A DNA stretch of 64,000 nucleotides from Candidatus Moraniibacteriota bacterium (GTDB lineage Bacteria; Patescibacteriota; Minisyncoccia; Moranbacterales; UBA2206): assembly GCA_049303905.1 (NCBI GenBank), contig JBAQNP010000020.1, positions 5,584 through 69,583 on the forward strand, in the 5' to 3' direction. The notes below the pieces were generated by a model. It was not told the origin of the DNA. It did not search any database and saw nothing but the letters and a program-made list of their open reading frames with translations. The position numbers were made by a program, and so were the translations under genes. Below, one piece after another: positions 1,256 to 62,137 of this stretch. Numbering within the stretch: the first letter of the stretch is position 1; each line of letters starts with the position of its first letter.

Positions 1256-3154
1256 ATGTCATTACGAGATATTAAGAATAATTTATACAAGAAAGATGCG
1301 CCGGAGAATTTGTCGGAGCATGAGATTAGCAAATACGATCCAGCTGTTGCTAAAGACACCGGAGAGATGAATAAGGGTGAGAGCGATCTTTGGGCAAAAA
1401 AAACAGGACTGGATCAAACCGAAAAAAAAGCCATCAAAAAAGGCGTGATTGCTTTTGCAATTGTTATCGGGATAATTATCGCTTTGGCTATTTTTGCGAT
1501 AGTTCGACAAATTATTTTTCAATCGGGCAATGCCACTATTGAAATTTCTGGCCCTATGCAAGTAAACAGCGGGAAACTTTTGACTTATGAGATAAATTAT
1601 AAAAATGACAATCGACTCACGATAAAAAATGCAGTTTTGCGTATCAATTATCCGGAAAATTTCAAACCGGAAAACAATCCAAATTTCAAGTCTGATAACC
1701 TTACTTCAGGAAGTTTCAATATCGGAACGATCAAGGGTAAAACTCAGGGAAAAATTATTCTAAATGGAAAAGCTTATAGTCCTAAGGGCGCGCTAATTTA
1801 CCTTAAAGCTTCAATGTCGTATAATCCTTCGGGCTATTCCAGTCAATTTCAAACCAATGGACAGTTAGGTGTGAATATTAATTCTGCGCCAATTATTTTG
1901 GAAGTATTGGCTCCTCAAAACGCTTCAAATGGTGATGCAGTTGACTATCAGATAAACTATAAAAACGATGGAGCAGAGGTAATAGAAAATTTGTCAGTTA
2001 AGATAAAATATCCTGATGGGTTCACTTTTTCTTCCGCTAGCCCCAAGACTTCGACGGATAATAATATTTGGAATATTGGAAATATCCCCGCTGGGCATAG
2101 CGGAAAAATAGTTGTGAGTGGAAAACTGGAGGGAGAAAGGGAGAATGTCAAGATGGTTGAGGCAGAAATTGGCGTAATGGAACAAAATGAATTCGTGGCC
2201 TATAACAGTGAAAGCGCTGAAACTAAAATTATTTTTTCTCCATTGACAATTATACAGAGAGTTAACAAAAAAGATAATCTTGTTGTGAATGCGGGAGAGA
2301 CATTGGAATTTGAAGTTGCTTATAAAAACAATGGTAGTGTGGGACTACGCGATGTTATTATCACGGAAAAAATAGATAGCGCACTATTGGATTATTCATC
2401 ACTAAGATTGAAAAATGGAAGTTTTGATACTGACAACAAGACGATTACCTGGAAAGCTTCAGATATAAAAGAGTTAGCCAATTTGGGGGCTAATCAAAGT
2501 GGGATGTTAAATTTTACTATTAAAGTCTCAAATACTTTTCCAGTAGGAGAAGAAAAAGACAAAAATTTTATCATAAAAAGTGTGGCTAAAATTGACAGTC
2601 CAGATGTGCCAACGCCAATTTCTATGAACAAGATAATTTCAAGCAATGAGATTAATATGAAAGTTAACTCAAAAGTGGCGGTGAGTGTCAAGGGATATTA
2701 TGCCGATAAGAGTATTCCAAACTCTGGTCCAATCCCGCCAAAAGTCGGTCAAGAAACAACCTATACAATTCATTGGAAAGCATTGAATATTTCTAATGAT
2801 GTTTCTGGTGCTAAGGTTGTTGCGACTTTGCCAACTAATGCGCAAATGACTGGAAAATTTTTCCCAGAGGGCGCAAATTTGAATTATAATTCCAGAACCA
2901 ATGAAATGGTTTGGACAATTGGGAATATGAAATCTGGCACAGGACTACTTTTTGATTCGCCAGAAGTATCTTTCCAAGTGAAAATAAAACCATCGCCGGA
3001 TCAAGTCGGCAGAGAGGTGGGGCTTCTGGAAAAAACAAACATATTTGCCAAAGATCTTTTTACCGGAGAGGATATCAAAGGAGAATATGAGGCAAAAAAT
3101 ACCAACCTCACAGAAGATAGTTCAATCGTAGGCGGAAATCGGGTAGAGGGTTAG
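1256..3154 (+). CDS. Membrane-anchored surface protein with tandem DUF11/CARDB-like beta-sandwich repeats
   Basis: 632 aa with an N-terminal TM helix (IAFAIVIGIIIALAIFAIV). Repeated blocks (INYKNDN..L.I, INYKNDGAEVIENLSVKIKYPDGF, EFEVAYKNNGSVGLRDVII) match the conserved-repeat-domain pattern. Confidence 0.7.
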   Translation: MSLRDIKNNLYKKDAPENLSEHEISKYDPAVAKDTGEMNKGESDLWAKKTGLDQTEKKAIKKGVIAFAIVIGIIIALAIFAIVRQIIFQSGNATIEISGPMQVNSGKLLTYEINYKNDNRLTIKNAVLRINYPENFKPENNPNFKSDNLTSGSFNIGTIKGKTQGKIILNGKAYSPKGALIYLKASMSYNPSGYSSQFQTNGQLGVNINSAPIILEVLAPQNASNGDAVDYQINYKNDGAEVIENLSVKIKYPDGFTFSSASPKTSTDNNIWNIGNIPAGHSGKIVVSGKLEGERENVKMVEAEIGVMEQNEFVAYNSESAETKIIFSPLTIIQRVNKKDNLVVNAGETLEFEVAYKNNGSVGLRDVIITEKIDSALLDYSSLRLKNGSFDTDNKTITWKASDIKELANLGANQSGMLNFTIKVSNTFPVGEEKDKNFIIKSVAKIDSPDVPTPISMNKIISSNEINMKVNSKVAVSVKGYYADKSIPNSGPIPPKVGQETTYTIHWKALNISNDVSGAKVVATLPTNAQMTGKFFPEGANLNYNSRTNEMVWTIGNMKSGTGLLFDSPEVSFQVKIKPSPDQVGREVGLLEKTNIFAKDLFTGEDIKGEYEAKNTNLTEDSSIVGGNRVEG

Positions 3155-3180
3155 GATGATTTAGTTTCTTTATTTTTCTA

Positions 3181-3245
3181 AATTAACTCACGGTCTAATT
3201 TTCTGGCTAAAAATTTTCCTCAATCGACGGCTGGAGGAAGGGACT
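3181..3245 (+). repeat. Copy 1 of a recurrent hairpin motif (loop core CTCAATCGACGGCTGG) in the tgt 5' region
   Basis: Shares aattaactc...ttctggctaaaaattttcctcaatcgacggctgg with copies at 3297, 4596, 14690 and 60375. Confidence 0.5.
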
Positions 3246-3296
3246 GAAGATTGTTATTAAAAATTAAAAAATAACTCGAAAGCGTATTTTAATAAT

Positions 3297-3340
3297 CAGA
3301 AATTTTCCCTCAATCGACGGCGGATAAGGAAAATTTCTGA
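3297..3340 (+). repeat. Copy 2 of the hairpin motif: 11-bp stem agaaattttcc/ggaaaatttct with 19-nt loop ctcaatcgacggcggataa
   Basis: Perfect inverted repeat around the conserved loop. Itself enclosed by a 19-bp long-range inverted repeat (3246-3265 / 3373-3391). Confidence 0.55.
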
Positions 3341-3414
3341 ATAAAATACACTTTCTCAAACAGGATTTTTTAAATTTTAATAACAATCTTCTTGTAAGTA
3401 TAGATAGAAAAAGT

Positions 3415-4590
3415 ATGTTTGAGATAATTTCAAAAAATCCCGCCTCGACTCGCGGAGACGGTCACTCGTCGATGCGAGGCGGGAGCAATAGTCGAGTTGG
3501 AAAAATTAGACTTAAAAACGGAGAAGTTAACACTCCGTTTTTTATGCCTGATGCGACGCGTGGTTTTGTGCGATCAATTGACAATGAAATTTTAAATTCC
3601 ATAGGTCTCGAAGCGATTCTCATTAACACCTATCATTTGTTTTTAAATCCTGGAATGAAAATAATCAAAGAAGCGGGTGATGCTCATGGCTTTATGAATT
3701 GGTCGCGTCCACTGCTTTCTGATTCGGGTGGATATCAGGTTTTTTCGCTTATTCATAAAAATCCGCGTCTTGGGAAGATTACTGATAATGAGGTGATTTT
3801 TAAATCTCCCCATAGTGGAGAAAAACATATTTTAACACCAGAAATTGCCATTCAAATTCAGTTTGATTTGGGGGTGGACATGATGGTTTGTTTGGATGAT
3901 CCACCACCGAATGATTATTCAAAAGATAAAATTGAAAAAGCAGTTTTGCGGACTATTCGTTGGGCAAAGAGGTGTAAAGATGAATATGAAAAACAAATTC
4001 AAGAAAGAAAAATATCTGAAAAAAATCGACCGTTAATTTTTGGGGTTATTCAGGGCGGGGAATATTTAGATCTTAGAAAACATTGTACCGAGGAACTAGT
4101 GAAAATCGGGTTCGATGGTTATGGTTTTGGAGCGAGACATATCGATGTTGATGGAAATTTCATGGAAGAAGTGGTGCGAGAAACCGCTGGCTTTATCCCA
4201 GAAAATTCATTGCGTTTTGCTTTGGGAGTTGGTACACCGGAGGATATTGTGAAATGTTTTTCATATGGCTGGGATATGTTTGATTGTGTGATTCCTACTA
4301 GAGAAGGGCGACATGGGCGTTTGTTTTTGCGAAAAGGAAAGAGTCTCACTGAATATGAAACAATTAATATTAATAACGGAAAATATAAAAATGATTTTTC
4401 GCGAATTGACGAGAATTGTGATTGTATGTTATGTAAGAATCACACTCGAGCCTATTTGCACCATCTTTTTTCTTCCAAAGAAATGCTTGGGATGAGACTC
4501 TCTGCAATTCATAATTTGAAGTTTTATGTGGATTTACTGGCGTCACTCCGAAATGGCGTAAATTCAAAAAAAATTGAACTCAAACCTTAA
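3415..4590 (+). CDS. tgt: Queuine tRNA-ribosyltransferase
   Basis: 391 aa with the DSGGYQ motif and a C-terminal CDCMLC zinc site. The N-terminus carries a 15-aa insertion encoded by a GC-rich palindrome. Confidence 0.9.
   Translation: MFEIISKNPASTRGDGHSSMRGGSNSRVGKIRLKNGEVNTPFFMPDATRGFVRSIDNEILNSIGLEAILINTYHLFLNPGMKIIKEAGDAHGFMNWSRPLLSDSGGYQVFSLIHKNPRLGKITDNEVIFKSPHSGEKHILTPEIAIQIQFDLGVDMMVCLDDPPPNDYSKDKIEKAVLRTIRWAKRCKDEYEKQIQERKISEKNRPLIFGVIQGGEYLDLRKHCTEELVKIGFDGYGFGARHIDVDGNFMEEVVRETAGFIPENSLRFALGVGTPEDIVKCFSYGWDMFDCVIPTREGRHGRLFLRKGKSLTEYETININNGKYKNDFSRIDENCDCMLCKNHTRAYLHHLFSSKEMLGMRLSAIHNLKFYVDLLASLRNGVNSKKIELKP
3439..3483 (+). repeat. GC-rich palindromic element family 1, 45 nt, in-frame inside tgt (encodes PASTRGDGHSSMRGG)
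   Basis: cccgcctcgactcgcggagacggtcactcgtcgatgcgaggcggg has terminal inverted repeats cccgcctcg/cgaggcggg. It is the reverse-orientation match of the copies at 37026, 29539 and 62138. Confidence 0.75.
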
Positions 4591-4712: not shown

Positions 4713-6080
4713 ATGAAAAATTCAATTAATAATAAAAAAATAGAATTACTGGCTCCAGCTGGCTTGCCTCGCCAAAGCAAAAAAAAGACAAAAGTCGAAT
4801 TGCTTGCGCCGGCGGGCAGTATTGAAAAAATGAAATATGCCTTTGCCTATGGCGCGGACGCGGTTTATTTTGGTGTGCCGGATTTTTCTCTTCGTGTAAG
4901 GATTAATAAATTTAGCGAAAAAGATATTTTGGAAGCTGTCTCCTATGCTCATAAGTTAGGCAAAAAAATATATGTGACACTTAATATTTATGCGCATAAT
5001 CAACATTTGGAAAAAGTAGAAAAACATTTGAAGTTTCTTAGGAATATAAAAATCGACGGAATTATCGCTAGTGATCCGGGGATAATAAATTTGGTCAAAA
5101 AATATTTGCCGAAAGTGGACATCCATCTTTCCACTCAAGCTAATGCGACCAATTTTGAGGCGGTGAAATTTTGGAAAAGTTTGGGAGTGAAAAGAATAAT
5201 TTTGGCGCGCGAAGTGACGCTCAAGGAAATTGAAGAAATCGGAAAAAAAGTGAAAGGTATTGAGCTGGAGTATTTTGTTCACGGGGCAATGTGTATGAGT
5301 TATTCCGGTAGGTGTATTCTTTCTAAATGGATAAATGACAAGAGTGCAAACCTTGGAGATTGTACTCAGCCTTGCAGGTGGAAATATCATGAAGCATGTA
5401 GCATGAAACATGAAACAAAAGAAATATCTTTGATAGACAATCAAAAAAGATTCGAGATGGATATTGAAGAGGATCAGCACGGGACATATTTTTTTAATAG
5501 TTACGATATGAATCTGATTTCTCACATGGAAGAATTGGTGAAGGCCGGAATAAGTTCAATGAAAATTGAAGGACGAGCCAAAAGCGTCTATTATGTTGCG
5601 GTAGTGACACGGGCATATAGAAAAGTTTTGGACGCAATTTTGAATAAAAAAAATAGCTCAAAGGAAATTAGGAAAATAATTTCAGAACAAAAGAAAGAGT
5701 TGGATAATTTGGTTCATCGCGGTTATTCCACAGGTTTTCTTTTAGGCAACGAGCCGGCGCATAATTTTGAAGGAAAAATACAAAAGGGAAATTGGGAATT
5801 TGTTGGAGAGGTCATGGGCGTAAATGCAGGGACAGGTTTAAAACCTGTCCGTACTAATATTATGAAAATTCATAATGCAGTTTTGAGGCAGGATAAAATC
5901 GAAGCTATTACGCCGGAGAAAAATATTACACTCAAAATTAAAAAGATATTTAACGATCAGAAAAAAGAAATTTCTGAGGCTCACGGTGGGCATGAAAAAT
6001 TATATTACTTTGAGTTTGATAAGGTTTTGCCGGAGGGGAGTTTGATTAGGAAAAAAATAATTCTACAAAATACAAATTAA
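4713..6080 (+). CDS. Peptidase U32 family protein (PrtC/RlhA-like)
   Basis: 455 aa with ELLAPAG...AVYFG and EYFVHGAMCMSYSGRC motifs typical of U32. The ELLAPAG motif is duplicated at the N-terminus, and the CDS holds an MKHET element at 5388-5421. Confidence 0.8.
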   Translation: MKNSINNKKIELLAPAGLPRQSKKKTKVELLAPAGSIEKMKYAFAYGADAVYFGVPDFSLRVRINKFSEKDILEAVSYAHKLGKKIYVTLNIYAHNQHLEKVEKHLKFLRNIKIDGIIASDPGIINLVKKYLPKVDIHLSTQANATNFEAVKFWKSLGVKRIILAREVTLKEIEEIGKKVKGIELEYFVHGAMCMSYSGRCILSKWINDKSANLGDCTQPCRWKYHEACSMKHETKEISLIDNQKRFEMDIEEDQHGTYFFNSYDMNLISHMEELVKAGISSMKIEGRAKSVYYVAVVTRAYRKVLDAILNKKNSSKEIRKIISEQKKELDNLVHRGYSTGFLLGNEPAHNFEGKIQKGNWEFVGEVMGVNAGTGLKPVRTNIMKIHNAVLRQDKIEAITPEKNITLKIKKIFNDQKKEISEAHGGHEKLYYFEFDKVLPEGSLIRKKIILQNTN

Positions 6081-6108
6081 TTACAAATTTACAAATATAC
6101 AAAACTCT

Positions 6109-6492
6109 ATGAATAATGATGGGGTAATTTATAAAGAATTGAGTTATAAAATAATGGGTGCTATATTTGAAGTATATAATGAGTTGGGGTATGGCTTTAA
6201 AGAAAGATATTATGAAGATGCTATTGCAAAGGAGTTTGATAGGATAAAGTTGGTTTATAAAAGACAATTACCATATAAATTAAAATATAAAAATGAAATA
6301 ATTGGTATTTATAGATTTGATTTTTTGGTTGACGATAAAATTATTATAGAATTAAAACAAGGCGATTTTTATTCAAAGCAAAATTTCACGCAAGCTTTGC
6401 AATATCTGAAGGCAACAAAATTAAAATTAGCAATTTTGATAAATATAACACAAAAAGGAGTAAAATTTAAAAGAATATTAAACATTAAATAG
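6109..6492 (+). CDS. GxxExxY family protein (PD-(D/E)xK nuclease superfamily)
   Basis: 127 aa. The start YKELSYKIMGAIFEVYNELGYGFKERYYEDA and FDFLVDDKIIIELK match the GxxExxY family pattern. Flanked by inverted tacaaat/atttgta word arrays. Confidence 0.75.
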   Translation: MNNDGVIYKELSYKIMGAIFEVYNELGYGFKERYYEDAIAKEFDRIKLVYKRQLPYKLKYKNEIIGIYRFDFLVDDKIIIELKQGDFYSKQNFTQALQYLKATKLKLAILINITQKGVKFKRILNIK

Positions 6493-6549: not shown

Positions 6550-7947
6550 ATGGAAAAAGAACAATCGATGATGGAAAAAATAGTGTCGCTTGCCAAGCGC
6601 CGAGGTTTCGTTTACCCAAGCTCGGAAATTTATGGGGGTATGAGTGCGATTTATGATTATGGGCATTATGGAACACTTTTGAAAAATAATATTCGCGACG
6701 CTTGGTGGAAAGAGATGGTGCAAAAACGAATGGATGTTGTTGGGCTTGATAGCGCAATTTTCATGCATCCAAAAACCTGGGTGGCCTCAGGACACGTGAG
6801 TGGTTTTAATGATCCACAAGTCGATTGCAAAAAATGCAAATCTCGTTATCGAGCCGATCATTTACTAGAAGAATTCGGAATTATTATTGATGACAAAACT
6901 CCGATTGAGGAGATAAACAAGAATCTGGATAAATTGCGAGAAGAAAAGAAACTAAAATGTCCTAACTGTGGCTCGATTGAATTGACCGAAGCGAAAGTTT
7001 TTTCTTTGATGGCGAAATCTAATATAGGTTCGCCAACTGACGAACTTAGCGAGGAAAATGTGGTGTATCTTCGGCCGGAAACTTGCGGAGGAATTTATTT
7101 GGAATATAAAAATACGCTTGATTCTCTTCATCCGAAATTGCCGTTTGGCATTGCGCAAGTTGGCAAAGCTTTTAGAAACGAAATTGTGGCGCGTCAATTT
7201 GTTTTCCGCACGCGAGAATTTGAACAAATGGAAATGCAATATTTTTTGCGTCCCGAAATGATGAAGGAAAAATATGAAATGTGGAAAGGGGAACGTTGGA
7301 AATGGTATTTGGAATATGGAATTTCCGAGGAAAATATTCAATGGCACAAACATGAGAAACTAGCGCATTATGCTTCAGAAGCTTATGACATTGAATTTAA
7401 TTTCAAAAGCCTTGGTGGATTTCGTGAAGTGGAAGGAATTCATGCGCGGGGCGATTGGGATTTGTCTCAGCACTCCAAATTTTCTGGCGCTGATCTAACT
7501 TATTTTGATCAAGAAAAAAATGAAAGATTAATCCCACATATCATGGAAACTTCAGTTGGATTGGGTCGGTTATTTTTAATGTTTTTGGATAACGCGTACA
7601 CAGAAGAAGAAGTGAATGGAGAACTGCGAACAGTTTTGAAAATTGACAAGAGACTTGCTCCAATTAAGGTTGCAATTTTGCCCCTATCCAAAAAAGAAGA
7701 ATTGACCATGCCAGCCAAAGAAATTTGGGAAACACTCAAAGAAAATTTTATGGTTGAATATGACGAAACACAATCAATCGGCAAGCGCTATCGTCGACAA
7801 GATGAAATTGGTACGCCCTATTGTGTGACGGTAGATTTCGAAACATTAAATGATCAAGCTGTCACAGTTCGTGATCGTGATACGATGACGCAAGAAAGAA
7901 TTACTATCTCGGAACTTTCAAAGTATTTTGAGGAAAAGTTAAAATAG
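6550..7947 (+). CDS. glyQS: Glycine--tRNA ligase, alpha2 dimeric type
   Basis: 465 aa. N-terminal VSLAKRRGFVYPSSEIYGG and class II core motifs. The true start may be the internal MMEKIV. Confidence 0.9.
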   Translation: MEKEQSMMEKIVSLAKRRGFVYPSSEIYGGMSAIYDYGHYGTLLKNNIRDAWWKEMVQKRMDVVGLDSAIFMHPKTWVASGHVSGFNDPQVDCKKCKSRYRADHLLEEFGIIIDDKTPIEEINKNLDKLREEKKLKCPNCGSIELTEAKVFSLMAKSNIGSPTDELSEENVVYLRPETCGGIYLEYKNTLDSLHPKLPFGIAQVGKAFRNEIVARQFVFRTREFEQMEMQYFLRPEMMKEKYEMWKGERWKWYLEYGISEENIQWHKHEKLAHYASEAYDIEFNFKSLGGFREVEGIHARGDWDLSQHSKFSGADLTYFDQEKNERLIPHIMETSVGLGRLFLMFLDNAYTEEEVNGELRTVLKIDKRLAPIKVAILPLSKKEELTMPAKEIWETLKENFMVEYDETQSIGKRYRRQDEIGTPYCVTVDFETLNDQAVTVRDRDTMTQERITISELSKYFEEKLK

Positions 7948-7972
7948 TTGATAAGGCTAAAAAGTTCATAAA

Positions 7973-8002
7973 AAGCAAGGAATCAATCCTTGCTTTTTTC
8001 TT
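7973..8002 (+). terminator. Rho-independent terminator after glyQS
   Basis: Hairpin gcaagga-tcaat-tccttgc followed by ttttttc. Confidence 0.7.
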
Positions 8003-8239
8003 GCAAAATTTATCCCCCACCACTTTATTTAGTTTATTTAATCAAGCATTATATTTATTTTTAACACCCTCAAAGCAAAGCGAAAAGTGGTGAGGGAGTT
8101 ATCCACAACTACCAAGATTTTTTCTTGAATTTGTGATATAATAAAAACGTGAAAAGACAGTATGGGAAATCAAAAGCAAAATCTTAAAACAAAGATAATA
8201 TTTTATCTTAATTTTTAGTGTTGAAGTAAAAACAATAAA

Positions 8240-8863
8240 ATGAAAAATAAAAAAACTATACCAAAACAAAAATCACTTTCAATTATTCCGGACGAAAGAA
8301 TTGTAGGAAAAATATATCTGATTCGAGGAGAAAAGGTGATGTTTGATCGTGATTTAGCGGAGCTTTATGAAGTGGAAACAAAAGCATTGAACAGAGCGGT
8401 TAAAAGAAATATAAAAAGATTCCCAGCTGATTTTATGTTTCAGTTGGATAAAAATGAATCTGAAATATTTTCAAGGTACCATTCTGGCACCTTGAAAGAG
8501 GATGCTAACTTGAAGTCACAAATTGTGACTTCAAGAGATGACAAAAACTTGAGGTACCAAATTGGCACTTCAAGGTCACAAATTGTGACCTTGAAGAAAG
8601 GGCAGAATATAAAGTATCGCCCTTATGTTTTTACCGAACAAGGTGTAGCCATGCTGTCAGCTGTTTTGAAGAGTGAGAGAGCAATTGAAGTAAGCATCCA
8701 AATTGTTCGAGTTTTTATAAAAATGAAAAAATTATTGACTACTCATAAAGAACTGCGAGAAAAAATTGAGAAAATGGAAAAATCGAACAAAGAAAATTTC
8801 ACCCCGTTAGAAATTTTTAAAAATAAATATTATGAAATGGTGGTACATTTATGTTTTGCTTAG
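8240..8863 (+). CDS. ORF6N (KilA-N-like) domain protein
   Basis: 207 aa. N-terminus IRGEKVMFDRDLAELYEVETKALNRAVKRNIKRFPADFMFQL is the canonical ORF6N signature, and the C-terminal YVFTEQGVAMLSAVLKSERAIEVSIQIVRVF is conserved. Has an internal duplicated SQIVT segment. Confidence 0.75.
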   Translation: MKNKKTIPKQKSLSIIPDERIVGKIYLIRGEKVMFDRDLAELYEVETKALNRAVKRNIKRFPADFMFQLDKNESEIFSRYHSGTLKEDANLKSQIVTSRDDKNLRYQIGTSRSQIVTLKKGQNIKYRPYVFTEQGVAMLSAVLKSERAIEVSIQIVRVFIKMKKLLTTHKELREKIEKMEKSNKENFTPLEIFKNKYYEMVVHLCFA

Positions 8864-9098
8864 TCTAAAGGATAATAAATGGTATACTGGATATACTGGT
8901 AATCTAAAAAATAGAATTGCAAAACATAATTCTGGAGAAGTATTTTCTACAAAAAACAGGAAGCCATTTAAACTGATATATTCAGAAGCTTGTTTAAATA
9001 AATTAGACGCCCAAGCTCGAGAAAGATATTTAAAATCAGGAATGGGCAAAAGATATCTTAGGAATAGATTAAGATGTTATTTTGATAAAAATGATTAA
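8832..9098 (+). CDS. GIY-YIG nuclease domain protein, small stand-alone
   Basis: 88 aa. YIYVLLS...KWYTGYTGNLKNRIAKHN matches the GIY-YIG motif. Overlaps the 3' end of the ORF6N gene by 32 nt. Confidence 0.7.
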   Translation: MKWWYIYVLLSLKDNKWYTGYTGNLKNRIAKHNSGEVFSTKNRKPFKLIYSEACLNKLDAQARERYLKSGMGKRYLRNRLRCYFDKND

Positions 9099-9162
9099 AA
9101 TTTCTAACGGGGTCCAATCATATTTAAGGTTATTGCGAAATTTATGACAACTAACCCGAAGA

Positions 9163-12100
9163 ATGAAAAAGAAACTGAACGCATTGGGTTTAGAGATAAA
9201 GATTAAAATTAAAAATTACTCCAGAATGTTTCTAAAATCAAAAATAAAATTACTAATATTTTTCTTCTCAATAACTGTGTTATTGGTTTTGACGTCGAAT
9301 GATGCAAGTGCTTATACCTGTACTTGGACCGGAACAACTTCTACTGCTTGGGCGATAGCCACCAACTGGTCTGGGTGTAATTCAACTATTCCACAAACGA
9401 CGGATGATGTGGTGATTAATGTTGCTTCAGCCAATCAACCAATCCTTGATCTCATAGGAGGGAAAACAATAAATTCTCTTTCGATCGGATCGACACTAGC
9501 TTCAACCCTTACTCTTTCCAATGGTTTAGTAGATGTTAATGTTAATAAATTAACCATCACTAATAATCTAACTATTGGAGGTTCTGGCACAATTACCAGC
9601 ACCGCCAACACCACCGCCCAAACTCACAGTGTGAATATGTCGGTGGGAGGGAATGTGGGTATTGAGAGTGGGGGGAAGATTGATGTGACGGGGAAGGGGT
9701 TGAGTGGAGGAGCGGGGGGGGCTGTATATACTAGTGGTTCACCCGGTTACCTTATTAATGGTGGCGGTGGCAGCGGTGGCGGTTATGGCGGTTATGGTGG
9801 CAGTTGCGGTGGCGGTGGCGGTTATGGAGGGGCAGGAGGAGGTGGCACTGGCGGAGCAGGCGGAATAGTACATGATCAAGTTGATAATTCTCACCCAACT
9901 GTTCTTGGCTCTGGAGGTGGTGGTGGGTCAGGAGATGGAGCTGGTCATGCTGGGAGTGCAGGTGGCAAAGGGGGTGGATCAATAAAATTAAATGTGCTAG
10001 GAATACTAACTTTGAATTCCGGTAGTGGGATATACTCCAATGGAAGCAATGGAATCAACGGAGGAGCTAGTGGCGGAGGCGGAGGAGGCGCTGGCTCTGG
10101 TGGTTCAATTTGGATCCAAGCCGGAACAATTACTGGCACAGGAACGGTTCGGGCTAATGGAGGAACAGGAGGAACTGTCACTGCTTTTAGTATAACAGCA
10201 ATAGGTGGTGGTGGAGGAGCAGGTGGAAGAATTGCAATTTCAAGCACGAGAGGATTAACAATAACAGCTGCTGGTGGTCTCGGATACGATAGTCTATATG
10301 GCGGAACCGGCACAATATACTACAACGCTTCCGGAATATACACTTCCGAAGTTTTGGATTTTTCTGGAGCTAGAGATTTTACTACATCTGACATTACTAA
10401 ATCAGAACCTGGGACTTCTACAGTAGTAGTTTCACTTCACGGTGGTGACACCGATAATCCAAATGACTGGGCAGACAATTGGACAGTTATAAATGACAAC
10501 GACGACATCTCAGTTTTTGATAATTTCAGATATTTGCAATACAAAGTAGAATTTTCCTTTACTGGTTTGTCGACTGAAGATAAACCTAGTTTGCAAGATA
10601 TTTCAATAAACTATAACGCTTATCTTGACAAAACCCTCACCTCCTCAGTATACAATTCCAATTCCGACGCTAACTTAATCGGAGGAATATCTTGGGATGA
10701 AACTCTAAGCTCAAACACTAACATTAAATTCCAAATCCAAACTTCCGCCGACGGAGTCACTAATTGGTCAGGATGGTTTGGACCAGACGAAACTGACACT
10801 ACATATTTTGACGAAACTGATTCCCCTGACTTTTGCACAAAAACTGATTCAATTGTCACTTGCACAGTAGACGCTATCCCCTCAGCTTTCAAAGACGGAG
10901 CCAATGATCAATACTACCAATACAAAGCCTATCTAGATACTACCGATGGACTGGCTACTCCAACTCTAAATTCTGTCACCGTCACCTACGTAGTCAACGC
11001 CAACCCGGAAATTGAAGCCAGTCAAACTACCGCTGTCCCGGATGCCAATCAAAGAGTTAATGTTTCATATAACGTCCGAGACACCGACTCAGTTTCCGGC
11101 ACCATCACTCCAAGTTTTGAATATTCCCTAGATGGCGGATCTAGTTGGGTATCCATAACTTCCGGTTGTCTTGGTGCTACTGACTTAGCTGCTAAAACAG
11201 TCAATACCACCGAAGAAACTAAAAACAATTATATAACTTACACTGCCGTTTGGACTCCTGCTTGTGAAGCTGGTATCTCCACCACTACTTATGAAATCGA
11301 CGTTCAAATCCGAGTGAGAGCTGATGATGGTCAAGCCGCTAATCGCTATGGGTATGGAACAACAGAAAATTTCACCCTCGACACCAAAGCACCAATTCCC
11401 GACACCAAATCCATTATTATCTCCGCCAGAAAAACTACTGACAACCTCGCTCTCAATGCTGTCGATGATTCAACCAAACAAATGCGAGTAGGATTAGAAT
11501 CAGATCTATCTGACGGAACTTGGATAGACTACAACACTCTAGCTACAATTGATATTACCGACAACCCTGAAACTGCCTATGTTCAATTTCGAGATATCTT
11601 TGGCAACACTTCCGAAATTGAGAGTGTCACTGCTCCTGTTGCTCCTCAAAGCCTGATGATTCAAGACACTTCCAACACTCTTCTTGCCGAACCCGAATAC
11701 CGACTCTTCATAGCTTGGCAAGTACTCGACAATGACCAATACGGAGCATTATTTGATAAATATGTCATCTACCGCAGTGCCGACAATGGGGCTACCTATA
11801 CAGAAGTTCACACTATTTCCGACATCAGCACCAACTATTGGGCTGACAATACTGTAGTAGGAGAAGCCACTTACTATTATCGCGTCACTCACAAAAACGA
11901 CTACGGCATTGAAAGTTTTGGCAATGAATCCGCCTACAGCGACCCAGTCTATGGCAATGCCAACGGAGTTGAAGATGCCGGCGAAGGTGGAGGAGGAACA
12001 TCATCTGTTCCACCGGTTATTTCCAATGTTGCTATTCCCGAAGATTCCATCTATTCCACCCAAGCCACTATCACTTGGGACACTGACACTCTCTCTGACT

Positions 12101-14652
12101 CAACAGTCAAATACAGCGCTGATGCCGGAGTCTTTACTACCGGTAAAGTGATAACCACTTTACGAAACAACGGCACTCCCTACGGACCGCACACGGTTAC
12201 TCTTACCAATCTCAGTCCTAATACTACCTACTATTTCCAAGTTCAATCGGCTGATCAAAATGACAACGAAGCTACTAAACCCCAATCTGGTGATGATGAG
12301 TATCCAGACGGCTACAGTTTCACTACCGATCCTGGGCCACCAATTCATAGTGCTTGGACCACTCGAGTGACCAATCATAGCGCCACCATTGCTTGGAGCA
12401 CTGCCGGCACTCCTCCGGAAACATCCGTACCTTCTAATTCTGTGGTCACTTATTCCAAAAACTTTGACTTAGGCGAACCAACCACCATTGGAGGTTCTGA
12501 TGACTTAGTGACTTATCACGAAGTAACTATTAATGATCTTGATCAAGGAACTCTCTATTATTACCAAGTTCAATCCAGTGACGGCAACTATACTTCAATT
12601 GGAAAAAATGGTGACAGCTATTTCAGTTTCACCACCGACATTGACAACGTCGCCCCAACAATTACTTTCGATCCCGACACCGATATTACTAAAACTGACA
12701 CTACCGCCAGAGTTTCTTGGACAACCTCTAGTGAATCAGCTAGATCAACTCTGGAATATGGTACTGATACTGATTATGATTTAGGTACGCTCACCAATGC
12801 TAATTACAATACTAATCACATTTTTGATTTAGAAGATCTTACTCCAGAAACTACTTACTATATCCGACTTACCTCGACTGATATTAATGACAATGCGACT
12901 GTAGTAAGTGGAAATAGTTTTACTACTTTGGCGATAGCTGATGAGAGTGGGCCGACTATTTCAGACGTGGTAGTGAGTGATCTTAAGTATAATGAAGCGA
13001 CAGTTAGTTGGGAGACAGACACAGCCAGTGATTCTCGAGTGGAATATATTACAGCTACAGGCGGGGATTTTAGTGAGGCACCCTTTGCGGGAATAGCTAC
13101 ATCAAAAAACAACGCATCCGATCTTGGTCTTCACTCTGTAATTCTCTCTGGCCTCAACTCCATCACCACCTACTATTTCCAAGTTAAATCCACTGATCAA
13201 GATGGTAACACTTCTACATTAAAAGAAGGAACCAATGGCTACACCTTCACCACCACCTCCCCAACCACCGACTCTGACTCCAACGGCGAAGGAGATCAAC
13301 TCACCGACATCATGTCTCAAATCCAAGATATGATCGACAACTACTATTTCACCGAAGCCGAAATCCAAGACGCTCTCTCCGGACTCTATTCCATCTCCAT
13401 AACCAGTAGTGGCCCATCTGTAGATATCACTGACACCACCGCTACTTTCACCTGGACCACTAACCGACCAGCTATCGGCAAGATTTACTATTGGCAAGAC
13501 ACTGACAACGAGGACACGGCCGTAAGCCAAGCCGAAAACATCACTGCGGCTAGAACTGACCATGAAATCATAATTAAAAACCTCAACGCTAACACCAAGT
13601 ATAATTTCTACGCTTACTCCGAAGGACTCCTAGGTACCACCACCCAATCAGAAAACAAATCTTTCTCCACGGAAGACACCGCCAGTCTCTCTGGCATCTC
13701 CATTTCCAACCTTACTCTTAACTCCGCCGATATCTCTTGGACCACCACTGGCTCCATTGACTCTTCCCAACTTGAATACGGCGAATCAATTAAATATGGC
13801 AACGAAAACAAAGGTAAAACAGACGGCAATCTCCATACTGTCAATTTAACCAACCTCAAAGAAAACACCACTTACCACCTAAGAGTCACTGCTACCGACT
13901 CTGACGGTCAAACCCTCACCAGTGACGACTACTCCTTCACCACCACTTCTCTCCCCGTAATCTCCAACGTTACCATCAAAGATATCCAAATCGAATCCGC
14001 CACCATTAATTGGCAAACTAACGTCAAAACAGACTCCCGAGTAGAATTCAAAAAAGAAAACCAAGACCAAGGGACTACCACCGGTAAACTCGAAGCAGTG
14101 ACTGACCACTCCTTCACTCTTACCAACCTTTTCCCTGGAACTAGATATACTTTCAAAGTCTCTTCCAAAGACACCTTCAACAATGAATCTAGTAGTGAAG
14201 AACAATCTTTCACTACCAACGAAGATCTCAACGCTCCCCAAATCACCAACGTTAAATCTGACACCACCGTCTTTCCTGGTAAAGAAGCTCAAATCCAAAC
14301 CATCATTAGTTGGAATACTGACAAAGATTCTAATTCTATCCTGGCTTACCGCGAAGGAGTCGAAAAAGACCCTAACCTAATTGACCAACTTAAAAACCCT
14401 GACATAACTAAAATTGATAACTGGAAACTAATCAAAAAACAAGATCTCACCAAAAACCATCTCTTTGTCCTGACTGATCTAAAACCTGCCAGTGTCTATC
14501 AATTCAGAACTGCTTCATATGACAAACACAACAATGTCTCAGTCTCAGAAAACTATTCCTTACTCACCCCCACTAAACAACAATCCGTCCTAGATCTCAT
14601 CATCCAAAACTTTGAATCTACCTTTGGATGGGTGAAGAGGATTGGGAATTAA
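9163..14652 (+). CDS. Giant cell-surface protein (1829 aa) with N-terminal TM/signal, a glycine-rich (GGxGG)n module and about 10 tandem Fn3-like domains
   Basis: N-terminal hydrophobic segment. Residues about 190-330 are Gly repeats (GGGGSGGGYGGYGG...). Repeated units of about 90 aa follow the pattern ATITW.T...S.V.YG......LT.L.P.T.YYFQV.S.D..N. C3-rich codon usage is unlike neighbouring genes. Reverse-strand Pro-rich ORFs here are artefacts. Confidence 0.8.
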   Translation: MKKKLNALGLEIKIKIKNYSRMFLKSKIKLLIFFFSITVLLVLTSNDASAYTCTWTGTTSTAWAIATNWSGCNSTIPQTTDDVVINVASANQPILDLIGGKTINSLSIGSTLASTLTLSNGLVDVNVNKLTITNNLTIGGSGTITSTANTTAQTHSVNMSVGGNVGIESGGKIDVTGKGLSGGAGGAVYTSGSPGYLINGGGGSGGGYGGYGGSCGGGGGYGGAGGGGTGGAGGIVHDQVDNSHPTVLGSGGGGGSGDGAGHAGSAGGKGGGSIKLNVLGILTLNSGSGIYSNGSNGINGGASGGGGGGAGSGGSIWIQAGTITGTGTVRANGGTGGTVTAFSITAIGGGGGAGGRIAISSTRGLTITAAGGLGYDSLYGGTGTIYYNASGIYTSEVLDFSGARDFTTSDITKSEPGTSTVVVSLHGGDTDNPNDWADNWTVINDNDDISVFDNFRYLQYKVEFSFTGLSTEDKPSLQDISINYNAYLDKTLTSSVYNSNSDANLIGGISWDETLSSNTNIKFQIQTSADGVTNWSGWFGPDETDTTYFDETDSPDFCTKTDSIVTCTVDAIPSAFKDGANDQYYQYKAYLDTTDGLATPTLNSVTVTYVVNANPEIEASQTTAVPDANQRVNVSYNVRDTDSVSGTITPSFEYSLDGGSSWVSITSGCLGATDLAAKTVNTTEETKNNYITYTAVWTPACEAGISTTTYEIDVQIRVRADDGQAANRYGYGTTENFTLDTKAPIPDTKSIIISARKTTDNLALNAVDDSTKQMRVGLESDLSDGTWIDYNTLATIDITDNPETAYVQFRDIFGNTSEIESVTAPVAPQSLMIQDTSNTLLAEPEYRLFIAWQVLDNDQYGALFDKYVIYRSADNGATYTEVHTISDISTNYWADNTVVGEATYYYRVTHKNDYGIESFGNESAYSDPVYGNANGVEDAGEGGGGTSSVPPVISNVAIPEDSIYSTQATITWDTDTLSDSTVKYSADAGVFTTGKVITTLRNNGTPYGPHTVTLTNLSPNTTYYFQVQSADQNDNEATKPQSGDDEYPDGYSFTTDPGPPIHSAWTTRVTNHSATIAWSTAGTPPETSVPSNSVVTYSKNFDLGEPTTIGGSDDLVTYHEVTINDLDQGTLYYYQVQSSDGNYTSIGKNGDSYFSFTTDIDNVAPTITFDPDTDITKTDTTARVSWTTSSESARSTLEYGTDTDYDLGTLTNANYNTNHIFDLEDLTPETTYYIRLTSTDINDNATVVSGNSFTTLAIADESGPTISDVVVSDLKYNEATVSWETDTASDSRVEYITATGGDFSEAPFAGIATSKNNASDLGLHSVILSGLNSITTYYFQVKSTDQDGNTSTLKEGTNGYTFTTTSPTTDSDSNGEGDQLTDIMSQIQDMIDNYYFTEAEIQDALSGLYSISITSSGPSVDITDTTATFTWTTNRPAIGKIYYWQDTDNEDTAVSQAENITAARTDHEIIIKNLNANTKYNFYAYSEGLLGTTTQSENKSFSTEDTASLSGISISNLTLNSADISWTTTGSIDSSQLEYGESIKYGNENKGKTDGNLHTVNLTNLKENTTYHLRVTATDSDGQTLTSDDYSFTTTSLPVISNVTIKDIQIESATINWQTNVKTDSRVEFKKENQDQGTTTGKLEAVTDHSFTLTNLFPGTRYTFKVSSKDTFNNESSSEEQSFTTNEDLNAPQITNVKSDTTVFPGKEAQIQTIISWNTDKDSNSILAYREGVEKDPNLIDQLKNPDITKIDNWKLIKKQDLTKNHLFVLTDLKPASVYQFRTASYDKHNNVSVSENYSLLTPTKQQSVLDLIIQNFESTFGWVKRIGN

Positions 14653-14689
14653 GGAGAGAACTAAAAACAAAAAAATATTCTTGAAATTA

Positions 14690-14755
14690 ACTCGCCCTTG
14701 ATTTTTATAGCTAAAAATATCCCTCAATCAACGGCGGGAAAGGATATTTTAAGAT
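14690..14755 (+). repeat. Copy 3 of the hairpin motif (aattaactcgcccttgatttttatagctaaaaatatccctcaatcaacggcgggaaaggatatttt)
   Basis: 9-bp stem aaaatatcc/ggatatttt around the 19-nt loop ctcaatcaacggcgggaaa. The upstream arm aattaactc...gctaaaaat is shared with copy 1. Confidence 0.55.
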
Positions 14756-15027
14756 AAAAATCTAGGGCTCAAACAAGAATTTCGGCGAATATTTTTTGTT
14801 TTTAGTGGAGAGGAGGGAGAGAGGCGAGATATGAAGCATGAAAAAAGAGGGGTTCAATTTTATCGATAAAATTACAAAAAGGCTTATATAAAGCAAAATA
14901 GAATAACGGCTATTGCGTAAAAAACTGCCACATGGTAGGATATTTAGGTCGTTTTGAAAACTGGGTGGCAGGGAGGTTTAGCAAAAGCTTAGGCTAAAAA
15001 GGGGACATTCCAGACAAACTGAAAATA

Positions 15028-20578: not shown

Positions 20579-20983
20579 ATGCGTATAACGAAAGAACAAA
20601 AAGCGAATACGGCTAAAATTGCCAAAAAGCATAAACTAAAATTGGTCGTCATTTTTGGTTCTTTTGCCAGTGGAAAAAACAGAAAAGACAGTGATTTGGA
20701 TATGGGCGTGATTGGGGAAAAAGAAATTTCTTTTGAAAAGCAAATTGTCTTGACAAATGAATTATCTCAAATTTTCAAAAAGGATATCGATCTTTCAGTT
20801 TTAAATAGAGCTAATCCGCTATTACTTTTTGAGGCCAGTAGAAATGCTGTTTTAGTCTATGGCGAGAATAGTGAATTGGCCAAATTCAAGTTGTATGCTT
20901 TTCGAGTATACAATGACTATGCACCATATTTCAAAATTGAAAATGAATTGAATAAAAGATTAATAAAATCTTATGCCAGTTGA
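20579..20983 (+). CDS. Nucleotidyltransferase (MNT) antitoxin component of a HepT/MNT toxin-antitoxin pair
   Basis: 134 aa. GSFASGKNRKDSDLDMGV is the minimal nucleotidyltransferase GS...D.D motif. Confidence 0.8.
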   Translation: MRITKEQKANTAKIAKKHKLKLVVIFGSFASGKNRKDSDLDMGVIGEKEISFEKQIVLTNELSQIFKKDIDLSVLNRANPLLLFEASRNAVLVYGENSELAKFKLYAFRVYNDYAPYFKIENELNKRLIKSYAS

Positions 20984-21395
20984 TAAAAATATTATCATTA
21001 GAAAAATAACTTTGATAAACAAGGATTTAAAAAGTTTGGAAAAACTTAGTAAGCTTTCATTGAAAACTTATCTGAGCAAATCGGAATACGAAGCAATGGC
21101 GGAAAGATATCTGGAGAGAATAATTGGTCGGATGATTGATATTAATTATCATATTTTGTCAGAAAAAGAGAATAAAACTGCGGTAGATTTCTATAATTCC
21201 TTTATTGAAATGGGTAAGAAAAAATATTTGCCATCAAAGCTAGCACTTGTTATGGCTAATTCAGCAGGACTTAGGAATAGGTTAGCTCATGAATATGATG
21301 AAATTGATGAGAAAAAAGTTTTTGAAGCGATAGCTTCATGCTTGCGAGATGTTCCGAAATATTTAAAAAGTATTATGAAAGTTTTGAATTTGTAA
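20973..21395 (+). CDS. HepT-like (DUF86) toxin component
   Basis: 140 aa. The RNRLAHEYDEID sequence carries the R(x)4HxY motif. Overlaps the MNT gene by 11 nt, the usual toxin-antitoxin operon arrangement. Confidence 0.8.
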   Translation: MPVDKNIIIRKITLINKDLKSLEKLSKLSLKTYLSKSEYEAMAERYLERIIGRMIDINYHILSEKENKTAVDFYNSFIEMGKKKYLPSKLALVMANSAGLRNRLAHEYDEIDEKKVFEAIASCLRDVPKYLKSIMKVLNL

Positions 21396-30063: not shown

Positions 30064-30136
30064 GTCCTTATAGCTCAGTGGATAGAGCGTCTGGTTGCGG
30101 TCCAGAAGGTCGCAGGTTCGATTCCTGCTAAGGACA
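30064..30136 (+). tRNA. tRNA-Arg, anticodon read as GCG
   Basis: 73-nt cloverleaf: acceptor gtcctta/taaggac, D-arm gctc-agtggata-gagc, anticodon stem tctgg/ccaga with loop ttGCGgt, T-arm gcagg-ttcgatt-cctgc. CCA is not encoded. Confidence 0.8.
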
Positions 30137-30309
30137 CATTTATTATATAAAAATACGTAATTAATCACGTATTCTTTTTTATTAAAAACGCGAAACAGCG
30201 ATCAGGATAATCGCCGATAAAATCAAAAGTATAATTGTGAAAGCATATCTTTTCATAAAACATAATACAATCAGAACCGGCTTTTGTTTCTTGAAAAATA
30301 CTAGGGGGC

Positions 30310-61187: not shown

Positions 61188-61193
61188 CTTTTG

Positions 61194-62125: not shown

Positions 62126-62137
62126 GCTTTACGAATT

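Follow-up and report, generated by a model that had tools for sequence, protein, structure and literature searches.

A giant fibronectin type III-repeat gene with its own codon usage in a Candidatus Moraniibacteriota genome

Introduction

Why would a single gene on an ordinary AT-rich chromosome have a codon usage unlike that of its neighbors, and why only along part of its length? The question is raised by a stretch of 64,000 nucleotides from a Candidatus Moraniibacteriota bacterium (assembly GCA_049303905.1, contig JBAQNP010000020.1), which we refer to as the window. An open reading frame (ORF) at positions 9163..14652 of its plus strand encodes a putative surface protein of 1829 amino acids, exactly as stated in an initial annotation made from the sequence, and is here called the giant gene. 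Unless a contig of a relative is named, all coordinates are positions in the window.

Cells of the Patescibacteria, also known as the Candidate Phyla Radiation (CPR), depend on cell contact, and little is known about the contact molecules and their evolution; the locus provides a concrete candidate. The protein belongs to a class that is already known, the giant fibronectin type III (Fn3) surface proteins of CPR bacteria, which are candidate host adhesins in patescibacterial epibionts (PMC13059738). The membrane proteins of more than 1,500 amino acids reported there from the Absconditicoccaceae are similar in that they are patescibacterial, have an N-terminal signal or transmembrane segment and tandem Fn3 domains, and are presumed to mediate host contact. 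The giant gene differs in that it belongs to the class Moranbacteria/Parcubacteria, in that its repeats match PF16656, the N-terminal domain of purple acid phosphatases (PAP-N), and in that these are preceded by a glycine-rich module; a gene-specific codon dialect and an allele pool are not described in the parts of that report considered here.

The explanation that we favor, with moderate confidence, is that the gene encodes a hypervariable and exchangeable surface filament or adhesin with a conserved core on which synonymous selection peculiar to the gene acts, probably in connection with its expression. The filament would consist, in order, of a signal peptide, an N-terminal domain shared with other giant proteins, the glycine-rich module, about 4 β-sandwiches, 9 Fn3/PAP-N modules and a C-terminal tail. 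The unusual part is a codon dialect that is specific to the gene, conserved across alleles and species, and broken by a hypervariable patch in which the codons are host-like.

Codon usage within the giant gene

The share of C at synonymous sites ending in a pyrimidine, C/(C+T), was 0.46 in the giant gene, compared with 0.10 to 0.37 in the 50 other ORFs of the window. In 50-codon windows along the gene, the values spanned 0.15 to 0.80. A host-like stretch at 9163-10662 (0.20 to 0.44) was followed by a moderately C-rich stretch at 10663-12762 (0.31 to 0.59), a second host-like stretch at 12763-13062 (0.15 to 0.21) and the most strongly C-rich stretch at 13213-14112 (0.63 to 0.80). Strong C-richness began around position 13150, where the main C/T change-point was placed between amino acids 1329 and 1330. 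The boundaries of the codon mosaic described in the initial annotation were close to those measured here, and the mosaic is real.

The heterogeneity was evaluated with a permutation test, in which synonymous codons were shuffled among positions for the same amino acid so that the protein and the overall codon usage remained fixed. The observed heterogeneity exceeded that of all 2,000 permutations, with z-scores of 9.5 for the variance of C/(C+T), 6.1 for G/(G+A) and 4.6 for the GC content at third positions (GC3), corresponding to p<=0.001. A GC3 that became uniform once the amino acids were corrected for had been named in the initial annotation as the outcome that would speak against a mosaic; with a z-score of 4.6, GC3 remained heterogeneous.

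The strongest codon feature had escaped the initial annotation, and consists in the near disappearance of G-ending codons from about position 9720 onward. The frequency of G at third positions was 0.07 in the gene as a whole, compared with about 0.20 elsewhere, and in the biased segments it was only 0.05, with C at 0.33 to 0.50. The counts in the biased stretches were 0/66 for TTG, 0/45 for CAG, 1/71 for GCG and 3/176 for ACG; for comparison, the share of TTG was 34% in background genes and 41% in the ATP-synthase genes. A gene for tRNA-Leu(CAA) is present in the window (61193-61277), and a missing tRNA was therefore ruled out as the cause of the TTG avoidance. Pyrimidines occupied 76% of the 4-fold degenerate sites in the biased stretches, versus 46% to 50% elsewhere, leucine codons had moved from TTR to CTY (0.84 versus about 0.5; R is a purine and Y a pyrimidine), and ATA was avoided. 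The preference for pyrimidines spans all degenerate codon families, including the choices at the first position in leucine, arginine and serine codons.

The second host-like stretch is part of a hypervariable patch (12763..13149) that extends from the end of the third Fn3 repeat through most of the fourth (R3 and R4), in which C/(C+T) was 0.15 to 0.21 and G-ending codons are present. This patch showed the lowest identity among alleles and holds an insertion of about 354 codons in allele B. The nonsynonymous divergence (dN) was 0.16 to 0.40 in the patch, versus 0.06 to 0.10 in the conserved blocks.

It was also noted that 3 ORFs of 112 to 139 amino acids are located on the minus strand within the stretch of the gene where the bias is greatest (13219-13563, 13879-14298 and 13929-14267). 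These are most likely a by-product of sense codons of the RNY type (AAC, GAC, ATC, ACC, GGC and others), because the reverse complements of RNY codons are also RNY codons and never stop codons.

The dialect recurs in related alleles

The codons of each homolog were compared with those of its own flanking genes. The closest homologs were from metagenome-assembled genomes (MAGs) of Parcubacteria and Moranbacteria, on contigs here called L001, L003, L023 and L026. The C/(C+T) and G/(G+A) values were 0.46 and 0.19 in L001 and 0.46 and 0.16 in L003, versus about 0.25 and 0.32 in the flanking genes, and 0.48 and 0.17 in L026, versus 0.27 to 0.44 and 0.33 to 0.45 in its flanking genes. The log-ratios of individual codons in the biased segments of the window and in the L001 homolog, each relative to its own background, were correlated with r=0.84 (p=9e-17, 59 codons). 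The L023 allele takes on the bias at the point that corresponds by homology to the core following the glycine-rich module in the window, and the dip at amino acids ~1200-1350 (R3/R4) was host-like in 4 of 4 alleles. The dialect is gene-specific and common to 4 alleles from at least 3 genomes, all of which otherwise have an ordinary AT-rich codon usage.

The initial annotation had suggested repeats of different origin as one cause of the mosaic. This suggestion is not supported, since the repeats are uniformly old, with 38% to 56% nucleotide identity, and since both the dialect and the dip recur in every close allele.

Several of the contigs that carried homologs (L009, L010, L012-L015 and L017-L019) are labeled as Bdellovibrionales, Gammaproteobacteria, Bathyarchaeia, Thermoplasmata or Bipolaricaulota, so that the family has a very broad distribution unless the labels or bins of these MAGs are unreliable.

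Alleles are block mosaics and are decoupled from their genomes

Segmentation of the giant gene by nearest relative, using dynamic programming on 413 informative sites, identified 3 blocks. Amino acids 358-738 were L003-like, amino acids 748-1314 were L001-like at 91% of the informative sites, and amino acids 1317-1650 were again L003-like. The first breakpoint, from the L003 type to the L001 type, is located at ~11380..11400 (amino acids ~738-748), and the second, from the L001 type to the L003 type, at ~13100..13115 (amino acids ~1314-1317). The maximum chi-square value was 90.3, compared with a permutation maximum of 19, and 81 runs were observed where 193±10 were expected. The second breakpoint (position ~13106) and the main C/T change-point (position 13150) are separated by about 15 codons, and the breakpoint is near the border drawn at 13100 in the initial annotation.

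Contigs L001 and L003 belong to the same MAG (GCA_041662285.1). Exact overlaps were found between L001 1-113 and L003 10703-10815 (113 nucleotides) and between L003 14801-14922 and L001 5044-5165 (122 nucleotides), and between these junctions the 2 contigs were 66% to 82% identical or unalignable and differed in length by about 315 codons. This layout, with one upstream flank, one downstream flank and 2 internal paths, is that of a bubble in the assembly graph and therefore indicates that 2 very divergent alleles coexist. The simplest reading is that L001 and L003 represent 2 alleles of one locus in one population, which also differ in repeat number. Nearly every retrieved homolog was cut by a contig end, which fits population heterogeneity at the gene. 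Since the homologs in almost all public MAGs end in this manner, the family is probably under-represented in annotations, and a gene that breaks the assembly in almost every MAG examined has probably been under-reported.

When the gene was compared by blastn and tblastn with the remainder of the window, no copy of any part of it was found, which ruled out silent cassettes or the template of a diversity-generating retroelement there. As for the gene being a target of such an element, there was no reverse transcriptase among the annotated genes and no template copy in the window.

The divergence of the alleles does not follow that of the genomes. For the 2 close genomes represented by L001 and L026, the amino acid identity was 94% for TyrRS (synonymous divergence, dS, 0.38) and 97% for FtsA (dS 0.68), and that of the giant gene was 56% to 89% (dS 0.9 to 1.6). 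For the window and the distant lineage of the SO_2017 type, LeuRS was 76% identical with a saturated dS of about 2.5 and the NTP-transferase was 69% identical, and the giant genes of the window and L026 were 87% identical with a dS of 0.90. L026 also has the same block structure as the window allele, including a similar hypervariable patch (72% to 90% identity). This decoupling indicates that the allele lineages outlive the splits of close genomes and cross between distant ones.

The genes that flank the giant gene in the window have no counterparts beside it in L001, L003, L023 and L026, where the loci share an AlaRS-like gene upstream and the genes for TyrRS, AdoMetDC and FtsA downstream. 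The sole companions of the gene across loci are a non-coding element of 224 nucleotides upstream and a hairpin at the 3' end. For the gene as a whole, the recombination or horizontal acquisition proposed in the initial annotation is supported by the block switching (chi-square 90.3), the decoupling of alleles and genomes, and the different neighborhood. The locus is hypervariable and exchangeable, with alleles that are block mosaics shared across species regardless of genome relatedness, and in the present genome the gene is located in a different neighborhood together with its putative promoter element and its 3' hairpin.

Recombining surface cassettes are known from slpA switching in Clostridioides difficile and from the metaparalogs of cell-surface genes in flexible genomic islands. 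The locus resembles the slpA-type cassettes in its divergent allele classes at one locus, in the exchange independently of the genomic backbone and in having alleles that are older than the split of close strains. It differs from them in the absence of a known S-layer anchor, there being no SLH domain in the Pfam or NCBIfam searches of the giant protein, and in that the exchange spans lineages with 76% identical LeuRS. Divergent alleles in one population, sharing across species and variation confined to R3/R4 represent the pattern expected of a structure on which hosts or phages exert frequency-dependent pressure.

The dialect appears to be maintained rather than decaying

To the synonymous sites in alignments of 3 alleles, we applied a non-stationary likelihood model with 2 states, C and T. 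In the biased blocks outside the hypervariable patch, stationarity was rejected in none of 7 tests, which overlap in data, and 5 of these 7 rejected a decay towards 0.25, the equilibrium of the host (p=0.007 to 0.048). The estimated equilibrium frequency of C was 0.45 to 0.69 in the core and 0.27 to 0.35 in the hypervariable patch, where a value of 0.60 was rejected at p=0.02 to 0.04. We favor a dialect that is maintained over one that is decaying, for which the likelihood evidence is modest. The power is modest, but all results have the same direction. They suggest that the forces acting today on the core and on the patch are different, beyond a difference in age alone.

The preference for C followed conservation at the level of regions (Spearman rho=0.64, p=3e-5) and not at the level of sites within regions. 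Selection for accuracy at individual sites, of the Akashi type, was rejected because C-ending codons were no longer associated with conserved residues in the Mantel-Haenszel test once the comparison was made within regions. A link that is regional and not site-level fits weak synonymous selection that fails where turnover, indels and replacements are frequent. Under the favored explanation, the dialect, with C-ending codons increased and G-ending codons nearly excluded, would be kept at equilibrium by synonymous selection peculiar to the giant gene. The host-like patches, which are the N-terminal leader modules and R3/R4, would be the parts with the fastest turnover, indels and replacement, in which weak selection would be ineffective or repeatedly reset.

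Expression-linked selection as a cause of the dialect

The dialect has the shape of a classical optimal codon set, with NNC in 2-fold degenerate families, pyrimidines in 4-fold degenerate families and A over G. U and C, the cheaper nucleotides, are increasingly favored at 4-fold sites with expression (Chen et al. 2016, PMC4844684), and the codon bias of highly expressed bacterial genes is similar to the dialect in the preference for C over T at 2-fold sites, for pyrimidines at 4-fold sites and for A over G, and in a GC content raised above that of the genome. The dialect differs from it in that it is confined to one gene and absent from the ribosomal-protein genes of a relative, in that it is far stronger than in the ATP-synthase genes of the window and opposite to them for TTG, GTG and GCG, and in that it is interrupted by a host-like patch. 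The shift towards C-ending codons was +0.22 log units in the ATP-synthase genes, versus +0.92 in the biased segments, and the correlation between the dialect and the ATP-synthase shift was 0.38 by Spearman (p=0.003) and 0.17 by Pearson (not significant). Weak agreement with expression-linked shifts was seen in the increase of C-ending codons in the ATP-synthase genes and in the decrease of G-ending codons in the ribosomal-protein genes of L001.

Strong translational selection, the other cause put forward in the initial annotation, is the leading candidate, on weak evidence, and we consider expression-linked selection the most economical cause of the dialect. The C-ending part of the dialect finds a weak echo in the ATP-synthase genes, and the ribosomal-protein genes of L001 do not share the dialect. 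The most likely cause would be very high expression, acting through the efficiency or accuracy of translation on codons matched to G34 and U34, to which selection for cheaper pyrimidines in an abundant and long mRNA may possibly be added.

Several results weigh against this explanation. The L001 locus carries the genes for S13, S11, S4, L17, L13 and IF1, and in its ribosomal-protein genes the pyrimidine frequency at 4-fold sites (Y3) was 0.46, as in the other genes (0.46), with C/(C+T) at 2-fold sites of 0.24 versus 0.22 and G/(G+A) of 0.21 versus 0.21; the corresponding values in the adjoining homolog of the giant gene were 0.73, 0.42 and 0.08. The codon shift in these ribosomal-protein genes was not significantly correlated with the dialect (r=0.12), and the ATP-synthase genes of the window prefer TTG, GTG and GCG, all of which the dialect excludes. 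Among the distant family members, which are 30% to 35% identical and represented by 18 loci in species-representative genomes, most use the ordinary codons of their hosts. As these match their own flanking genes, a family-wide dialect was ruled out; the dialect belongs to the core of the present clade, and if it is due to high expression, such expression is likewise not shared by the whole family. In addition, 2 of the 7 likelihood tests did not reject decay (p=0.105 and 0.218), with modest power and overlapping data. As regards the age of the alleles, selection on codons lowers dS, and after correction for the bias the conserved blocks showed about 0.6 times the synonymous divergence of LeuRS. 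A clearly younger age of these blocks relative to the genomes, as raw proportions of synonymous differences would suggest, is therefore not upheld, and stronger evidence for exchange comes from L026. Moreover, contig L022, which provides the LeuRS yardstick, was assigned to the SO_2017 lineage solely on the basis of the shared sample, the organism label and synteny.

Expression as a cause would demand that the giant gene is expressed far above the ribosomal-protein genes, and an ultra-small cell that is poor in ribosomes could conceivably express its main envelope protein at such a level. A dialect that reflects expression would serve as a flag, read from sequence only, for the envelope protein that dominates in ultra-small bacteria not yet in culture, and one that does not would point to an unrecognized constraint on a long mRNA. 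An S-layer role is compatible with the acidic isoelectric point (pI) of 4.2, the richness in threonine, serine, glycine, asparagine and aspartate, the scarcity of cysteine and methionine and the strong codon bias, none of which is diagnostic.

Alternative explanations

Foremost among the alternatives, although we judge it to be unlikely, is that the C-rich core is a relic of foreign origin that came from a donor lineage, plasmid or phage and is drifting towards host usage, with host-like patches that are resident or older sequences recombined into it. The gene does have features of a horizontally acquired island, being atypical in composition (an outlier in GC content, skew and codon usage) and discordant in context and phylogeny, and a donor with a matching composition that decays towards that of the host was not found. 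The different neighborhood in this genome, the small genes of mobile type alongside (ORF6N, GIY-YIG and PDDEXK_3), the movement of allele lineages between species and the location of the main change-point at position 13150 only about 15 codons from a recombination breakpoint are all consistent with such an origin, as are the 2 of 7 tests that did not reject decay. However, a third-position frequency of 0.33 to 0.50 for C (C3) together with 0.05 for G (G3) breaks strand parity to an extreme degree, and to our knowledge no genome-wide codon usage is expected to combine these values. A relative that is 46% identical and located on a contig with 52% GC (L007) has a C/(C+T) of 0.75, as would suit a donor, but does not avoid G (0.34). 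Furthermore, the dialect and the dip are present in 4 alleles and at least 3 AT-rich hosts despite a dS of about 0.7 to 1.1, decay was rejected in 5 of the 7 tests, and the decay model needs an ancestral C frequency of about 0.8. Phage carriage was rejected after a search of 2.9 million viral contigs, in which no relative of the gene was found.

A more speculative version of synonymous selection, to which we assign a low probability, is that the filament gene, as it circulates among CPR species, takes the dialect along as a portable property that is under selection and tuned to something other than the general translation apparatus. Candidates would be the state of the tRNAs or their modifications, a nucleotide pool scavenged from the host, or a Rho-type coupling of transcription and translation. 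The choice between NAC and NAU depends on queuosine, and a tgt gene is located at 3415-4590 in the window. If this were true, the synthesis of the main contact structure of the cell would be conditional on its physiological state. In a simpler form of this version, the protein marked by the dialect would be far more abundant than any other in an ultra-small cell that has very few ribosomes, and a codon-based search could then find envelope or S-layer genes across CPR genomes.

The composition of the gene might instead be selected at the level of the nucleic acid, which we regard as improbable. The GC content of the gene is 0.43 to 0.46, versus about 0.35 in the window, and its GC skew is inverted. 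The skew is negative across the giant gene only, on a plus strand that is otherwise G-rich and has a cumulative skew that rises everywhere else. C was more frequent than G in 72% of the 78-nucleotide windows in the gene, versus 20% in the rest of the window, the longest unbroken run was about 1.1 kb, and the C/G ratio was 1.64 versus 0.76. With pyrimidines preferred in all degenerate families, the rule looks like one at the nucleotide level, as if a C-rich and G-poor transcript or strand were selected because it provides a rut-like surface for the loading of Rho or avoids R-loops or internal sites similar to Shine-Dalgarno sequences. In the variant with Rho loading, transcription of the 5.5-kb mRNA would be aborted unless it is translated, and the long tracts with more C than G are the single observation in favor of this role. 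Predicted folding of the mRNA was only about 10% lower than that of host-style recodings (z=1.6 to 1.7) and not below that of shuffles of its own codons. With so small a difference in folding energy from the host-style recodings, selection for an unstructured mRNA is not supported, and the exemption of the hypervariable patch in every allele would be left unexplained by any function of this kind.

A strand-specific mutation bias that gave the excess of C over G without selection, either because the gene was recently inverted with respect to replication or through damage and repair associated with transcription, is highly improbable: although the GC skew flips only across the giant gene on an otherwise G-rich strand and the minus-strand genes of the window have C3>=G3, their skew at third positions is about -0.16 versus about -0.8 in the giant gene, the shift from purines to pyrimidines at 4-fold sites (Y3 0.76 versus 0.46 to 0.50) cannot result from deamination of the transition type, C is enriched on the non-template strand, which is the reverse of the effect of deamination, all alleles are co-oriented with their neighbors and yet share the skew, and the hypervariable patch in the same transcript is exempt.

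Domain architecture of the giant protein

The mature protein has a mass of about 189 kDa and a pI of 4.2, and threonine, serine, glycine, asparagine and aspartate make up 50% of its residues, with methionine and cysteine scarce. We infer that it is a secreted, very acidic, all-β and extended extracellular filament or adhesin, located at the surface with a role in adhesion or in the envelope.

The N-terminal leader (9163..9315), read by inspection, consists of a basic stretch and the hydrophobic core LLIFFFSITVLLVL, followed by ...DASA|Y, and is a putative Sec-type signal peptide; the true start may be Met22 (position 9226). Within this region, 41 nucleotides that encode the hydrophobic core (9260-9300) were 97.6% identical to L003 10059-10099, in an N-terminus that is otherwise poorly conserved (27% to 56% amino acid identity), and could represent a recombination anchor or a constrained leader. 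The leader is followed by a β domain with a Cys53/Cys72 pair (9316..9690, amino acids 52-176), which was modeled with a predicted local distance difference test (pLDDT) score of 85 to 97 and matched no Pfam family. The N-terminal domain (amino acids ~22-175) is common to giant Moranbacteria proteins that are otherwise built differently (P0007, P0015 and P0006), with 52% to 65% identity.

The glycine-rich block that the initial annotation had placed at ~9700-10300 is present as a module with GGxGG runs at 9700..10302, according to both the sequence and an AlphaFold model. Its first ~50 residues were predicted to be disordered and the remainder to be β-structured with invariant glycine and arginine positions. 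The model of amino acids 23-830 was all-β with a mean pLDDT of 78, comprising the confident N-terminal domain, the partly disordered glycine-rich stretch and about 4 unclassified β-sandwich domains of Fn3/Ig-like type at 10240..11652 (amino acids ~360-830). The Foldseek matches were strings of tandem Fn3/Ig domains from the ROS1 leg, contactins, phage tail tips and Aureispira GhpA. The giant protein is similar to the GhpA grappling-hook filament and to the Fn3 strings of phage tail tips in having long strings of Fn3/Ig-like domains and an extended extracellular filament, but with 8% to 12% identity and low TM-scores the likeness is generic and implies neither homology nor a shared function.

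In the remaining part of the protein, the Pfam search gave matches to PF16656 (Pur_ac_phosph_N; E=7e-53, 177.6 bits with a cut-off of 30, 8 stretches) and to PF00041 (fn3; E=4e-31, 107.5 bits with a cut-off of 25, 7 stretches). The repeated units had been guessed to be Fn3 or Pur_ac_phosph_N domains, and both identifications exceed the gathering scores. A number of about 10 had been given, which is not confirmed: there are 9, of which 8 are clear and 1 is divergent. The borders of the repeats were determined with a hidden Markov model (HMM) built iteratively on the protein's own repeats. The 8 clear units of 90 to 117 amino acids span amino acids 942-1796 (942-1040, 1050-1149, 1153-1249, 1250-1354, 1408-1497, 1498-1588, 1589-1679 and 1680-1796), with a linker of 53 amino acids after the fourth. 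Repeats R1-R4 (11986-12282, 12310-12609, 12619-12909 and 12910-13224; E=1e-27 to 1e-33) showed pairwise amino acid identities of 30% to 44%. The linker (13225..13383, amino acids 1355-1407) is an acidic, non-Fn3 segment in the gap between the HMM matches. Repeats R5-R8 (13384-13653, 13654-13926, 13927-14199 and 14200-14550) were 84% to 98% identical in amino acids to the L003 and L026 alleles and form the part of the gene with the strongest bias towards C at third positions. The divergent Fn3-like unit (11650..11937, amino acids ~830-925) gave a weak match to the HMM, follows the pattern ...YYYRV...D, and contains EYRLF.AW, the most conserved motif of the family.

The identities between repeats were 16% to 44% for amino acids and 38% to 56% for nucleotides, and no long direct or tandem DNA repeats were found in the gene outside the short GGTGGC runs of the glycine-rich block. 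Such a low mutual identity shows that the repeats are ancient. Recent duplication or slippage was therefore ruled out, and a copy-number change of the slippage type is unlikely in the present allele. The repeats share the fold and profile of the Fn3-like N-terminal domain of purple acid phosphatases, with 8 repeats matching PF16656. Unlike these enzymes, the giant protein has no metallophosphatase catalytic domain, all of its Pfam matches at E<=0.1 being to families of Fn3 type, and the domain is here a structural repeat only.

The protein ends in a conserved C-terminal tail, ...LLTPTKQQSVLDLIIQNFESTFGWVKRIGN (14551..14649), the last 29 residues of which were 100% identical to L001 and 97% identical to L026. 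The tail contains no LPXTG motif and no clearly hydrophobic segment, and no sorting signal was matched in Pfam or NCBIfam. The NCBIfam search of the giant protein returned no match and hence no family name, and Pfam gave no match to repeats of the RTX/hemolysin type, the protein having instead, by inspection, an N-terminal leader of Sec type.

Conserved elements and genes around the giant gene

The conserved non-coding element upstream of the gene (7994..8215, plus strand) was 82% identical to L003 8739-8961 and 80% identical to L023 9751-9897, and has been kept although the synonymous sites are saturated between these genomes. It contains a perfect inverted repeat of 14 bp, ATCCCCCACCACTTT / AAAGTGGTGGGGGA, around an AT-rich loop of ~50 nucleotides, a perfect DnaA-box sequence TTATCCACA, a small hairpin CAAGATTTTTTCTTG and an extended -10 sequence TGTGATATAAT, the last being a consensus match only. 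In L023 the element directly precedes the giant gene by ~100 nucleotides, and in the window and L003 a gene of the ORF6N or Bro-N type, of which L023 has none, is located between the two. From these features, the element is probably the promoter or operator of the giant gene. A search of Rfam over positions 7900-9300 gave nothing at E<=1 except a chance match to a snoRNA.

The intervening gene in the window (8240..8863, plus strand) encodes a KilA-N-like DNA-binding protein (Pfam ORF6N, 9e-32), and its 3' end is overlapped in another reading frame by an ORF of 88 amino acids for a protein of the GIY-YIG nuclease family (8832..9098, plus strand; Pfam GIY-YIG, 6.4e-16). Small genes of selfish appearance are scattered in the window, including, besides GIY-YIG, a PDDEXK_3 gene (6109-6492) and a gene for a 23S-rRNA-IVS-type protein (34602-35168).

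The gene is followed by a structured element with a three-tier hairpin (14668..14800, plus strand; minimum free energy z=-4.0), with the invariant loops AACUC, CUCAAACA and, at the apex, CCUCAAUCRACGGC, and with a run of A before and a run of U after it, in the manner of a terminator. The initial annotation had pointed to a motif shared with the DUF11 gene (1256-3154), and exactly 3 occurrences of the loop sequence were indeed found in the window, one following the giant gene and 2 following the DUF11 gene, where 2 tandem copies of the element are located on the plus strand, one partial (3165-3262) and one intact (3255-3395, z=-6.7). From 6 copies of the ~120-nucleotide hairpin in 4 genomes, 26 consensus pairs were obtained, 11 of which showed compensatory changes. 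The copies in relatives were found at L003 4790-4915 and 5999-6135, L023 ~6029-6142 and L010 ~4372-4485, and Rfam gave no match at gathering scores. Since the element follows unrelated genes in the relatives, namely that for MnmA and an ORF of 60 amino acids, it is a lineage-wide intergenic element and not specific to surface genes; it may serve as an elaborate terminator for both directions or as a site for protein binding. In L001, a repeat of the heptamer CATGAAG with variants (5572-5620) directly follows the stop codon of the allele and replaces the 5' half of the hairpin element, of which the 3' half alone is left.

The window as a whole is ordinary chromosome, with genes for RecO, TGT, aminoacyl-tRNA synthetases, the F-ATP synthase operon, RecG, SmpB with tmRNA, and ParAB. 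The LeuRS encoded in it matched a protein of a Candidatus Moraniibacteriota MAG with 100% identity. Other genes in it include a toxin-antitoxin pair of the MNT/HepT type (20579-21395), a Fic-domain gene (57824-58453) and the parA-parB genes (61334-63139). Finally, ARAGORN predicted a tRNA-Arg with the anticodon GCG (30064-30137). This is unusual, as CGY codons are decoded in most bacteria by a tRNA with the anticodon ACG, modified to inosine, and it may bear on the decoding rules of the lineage.

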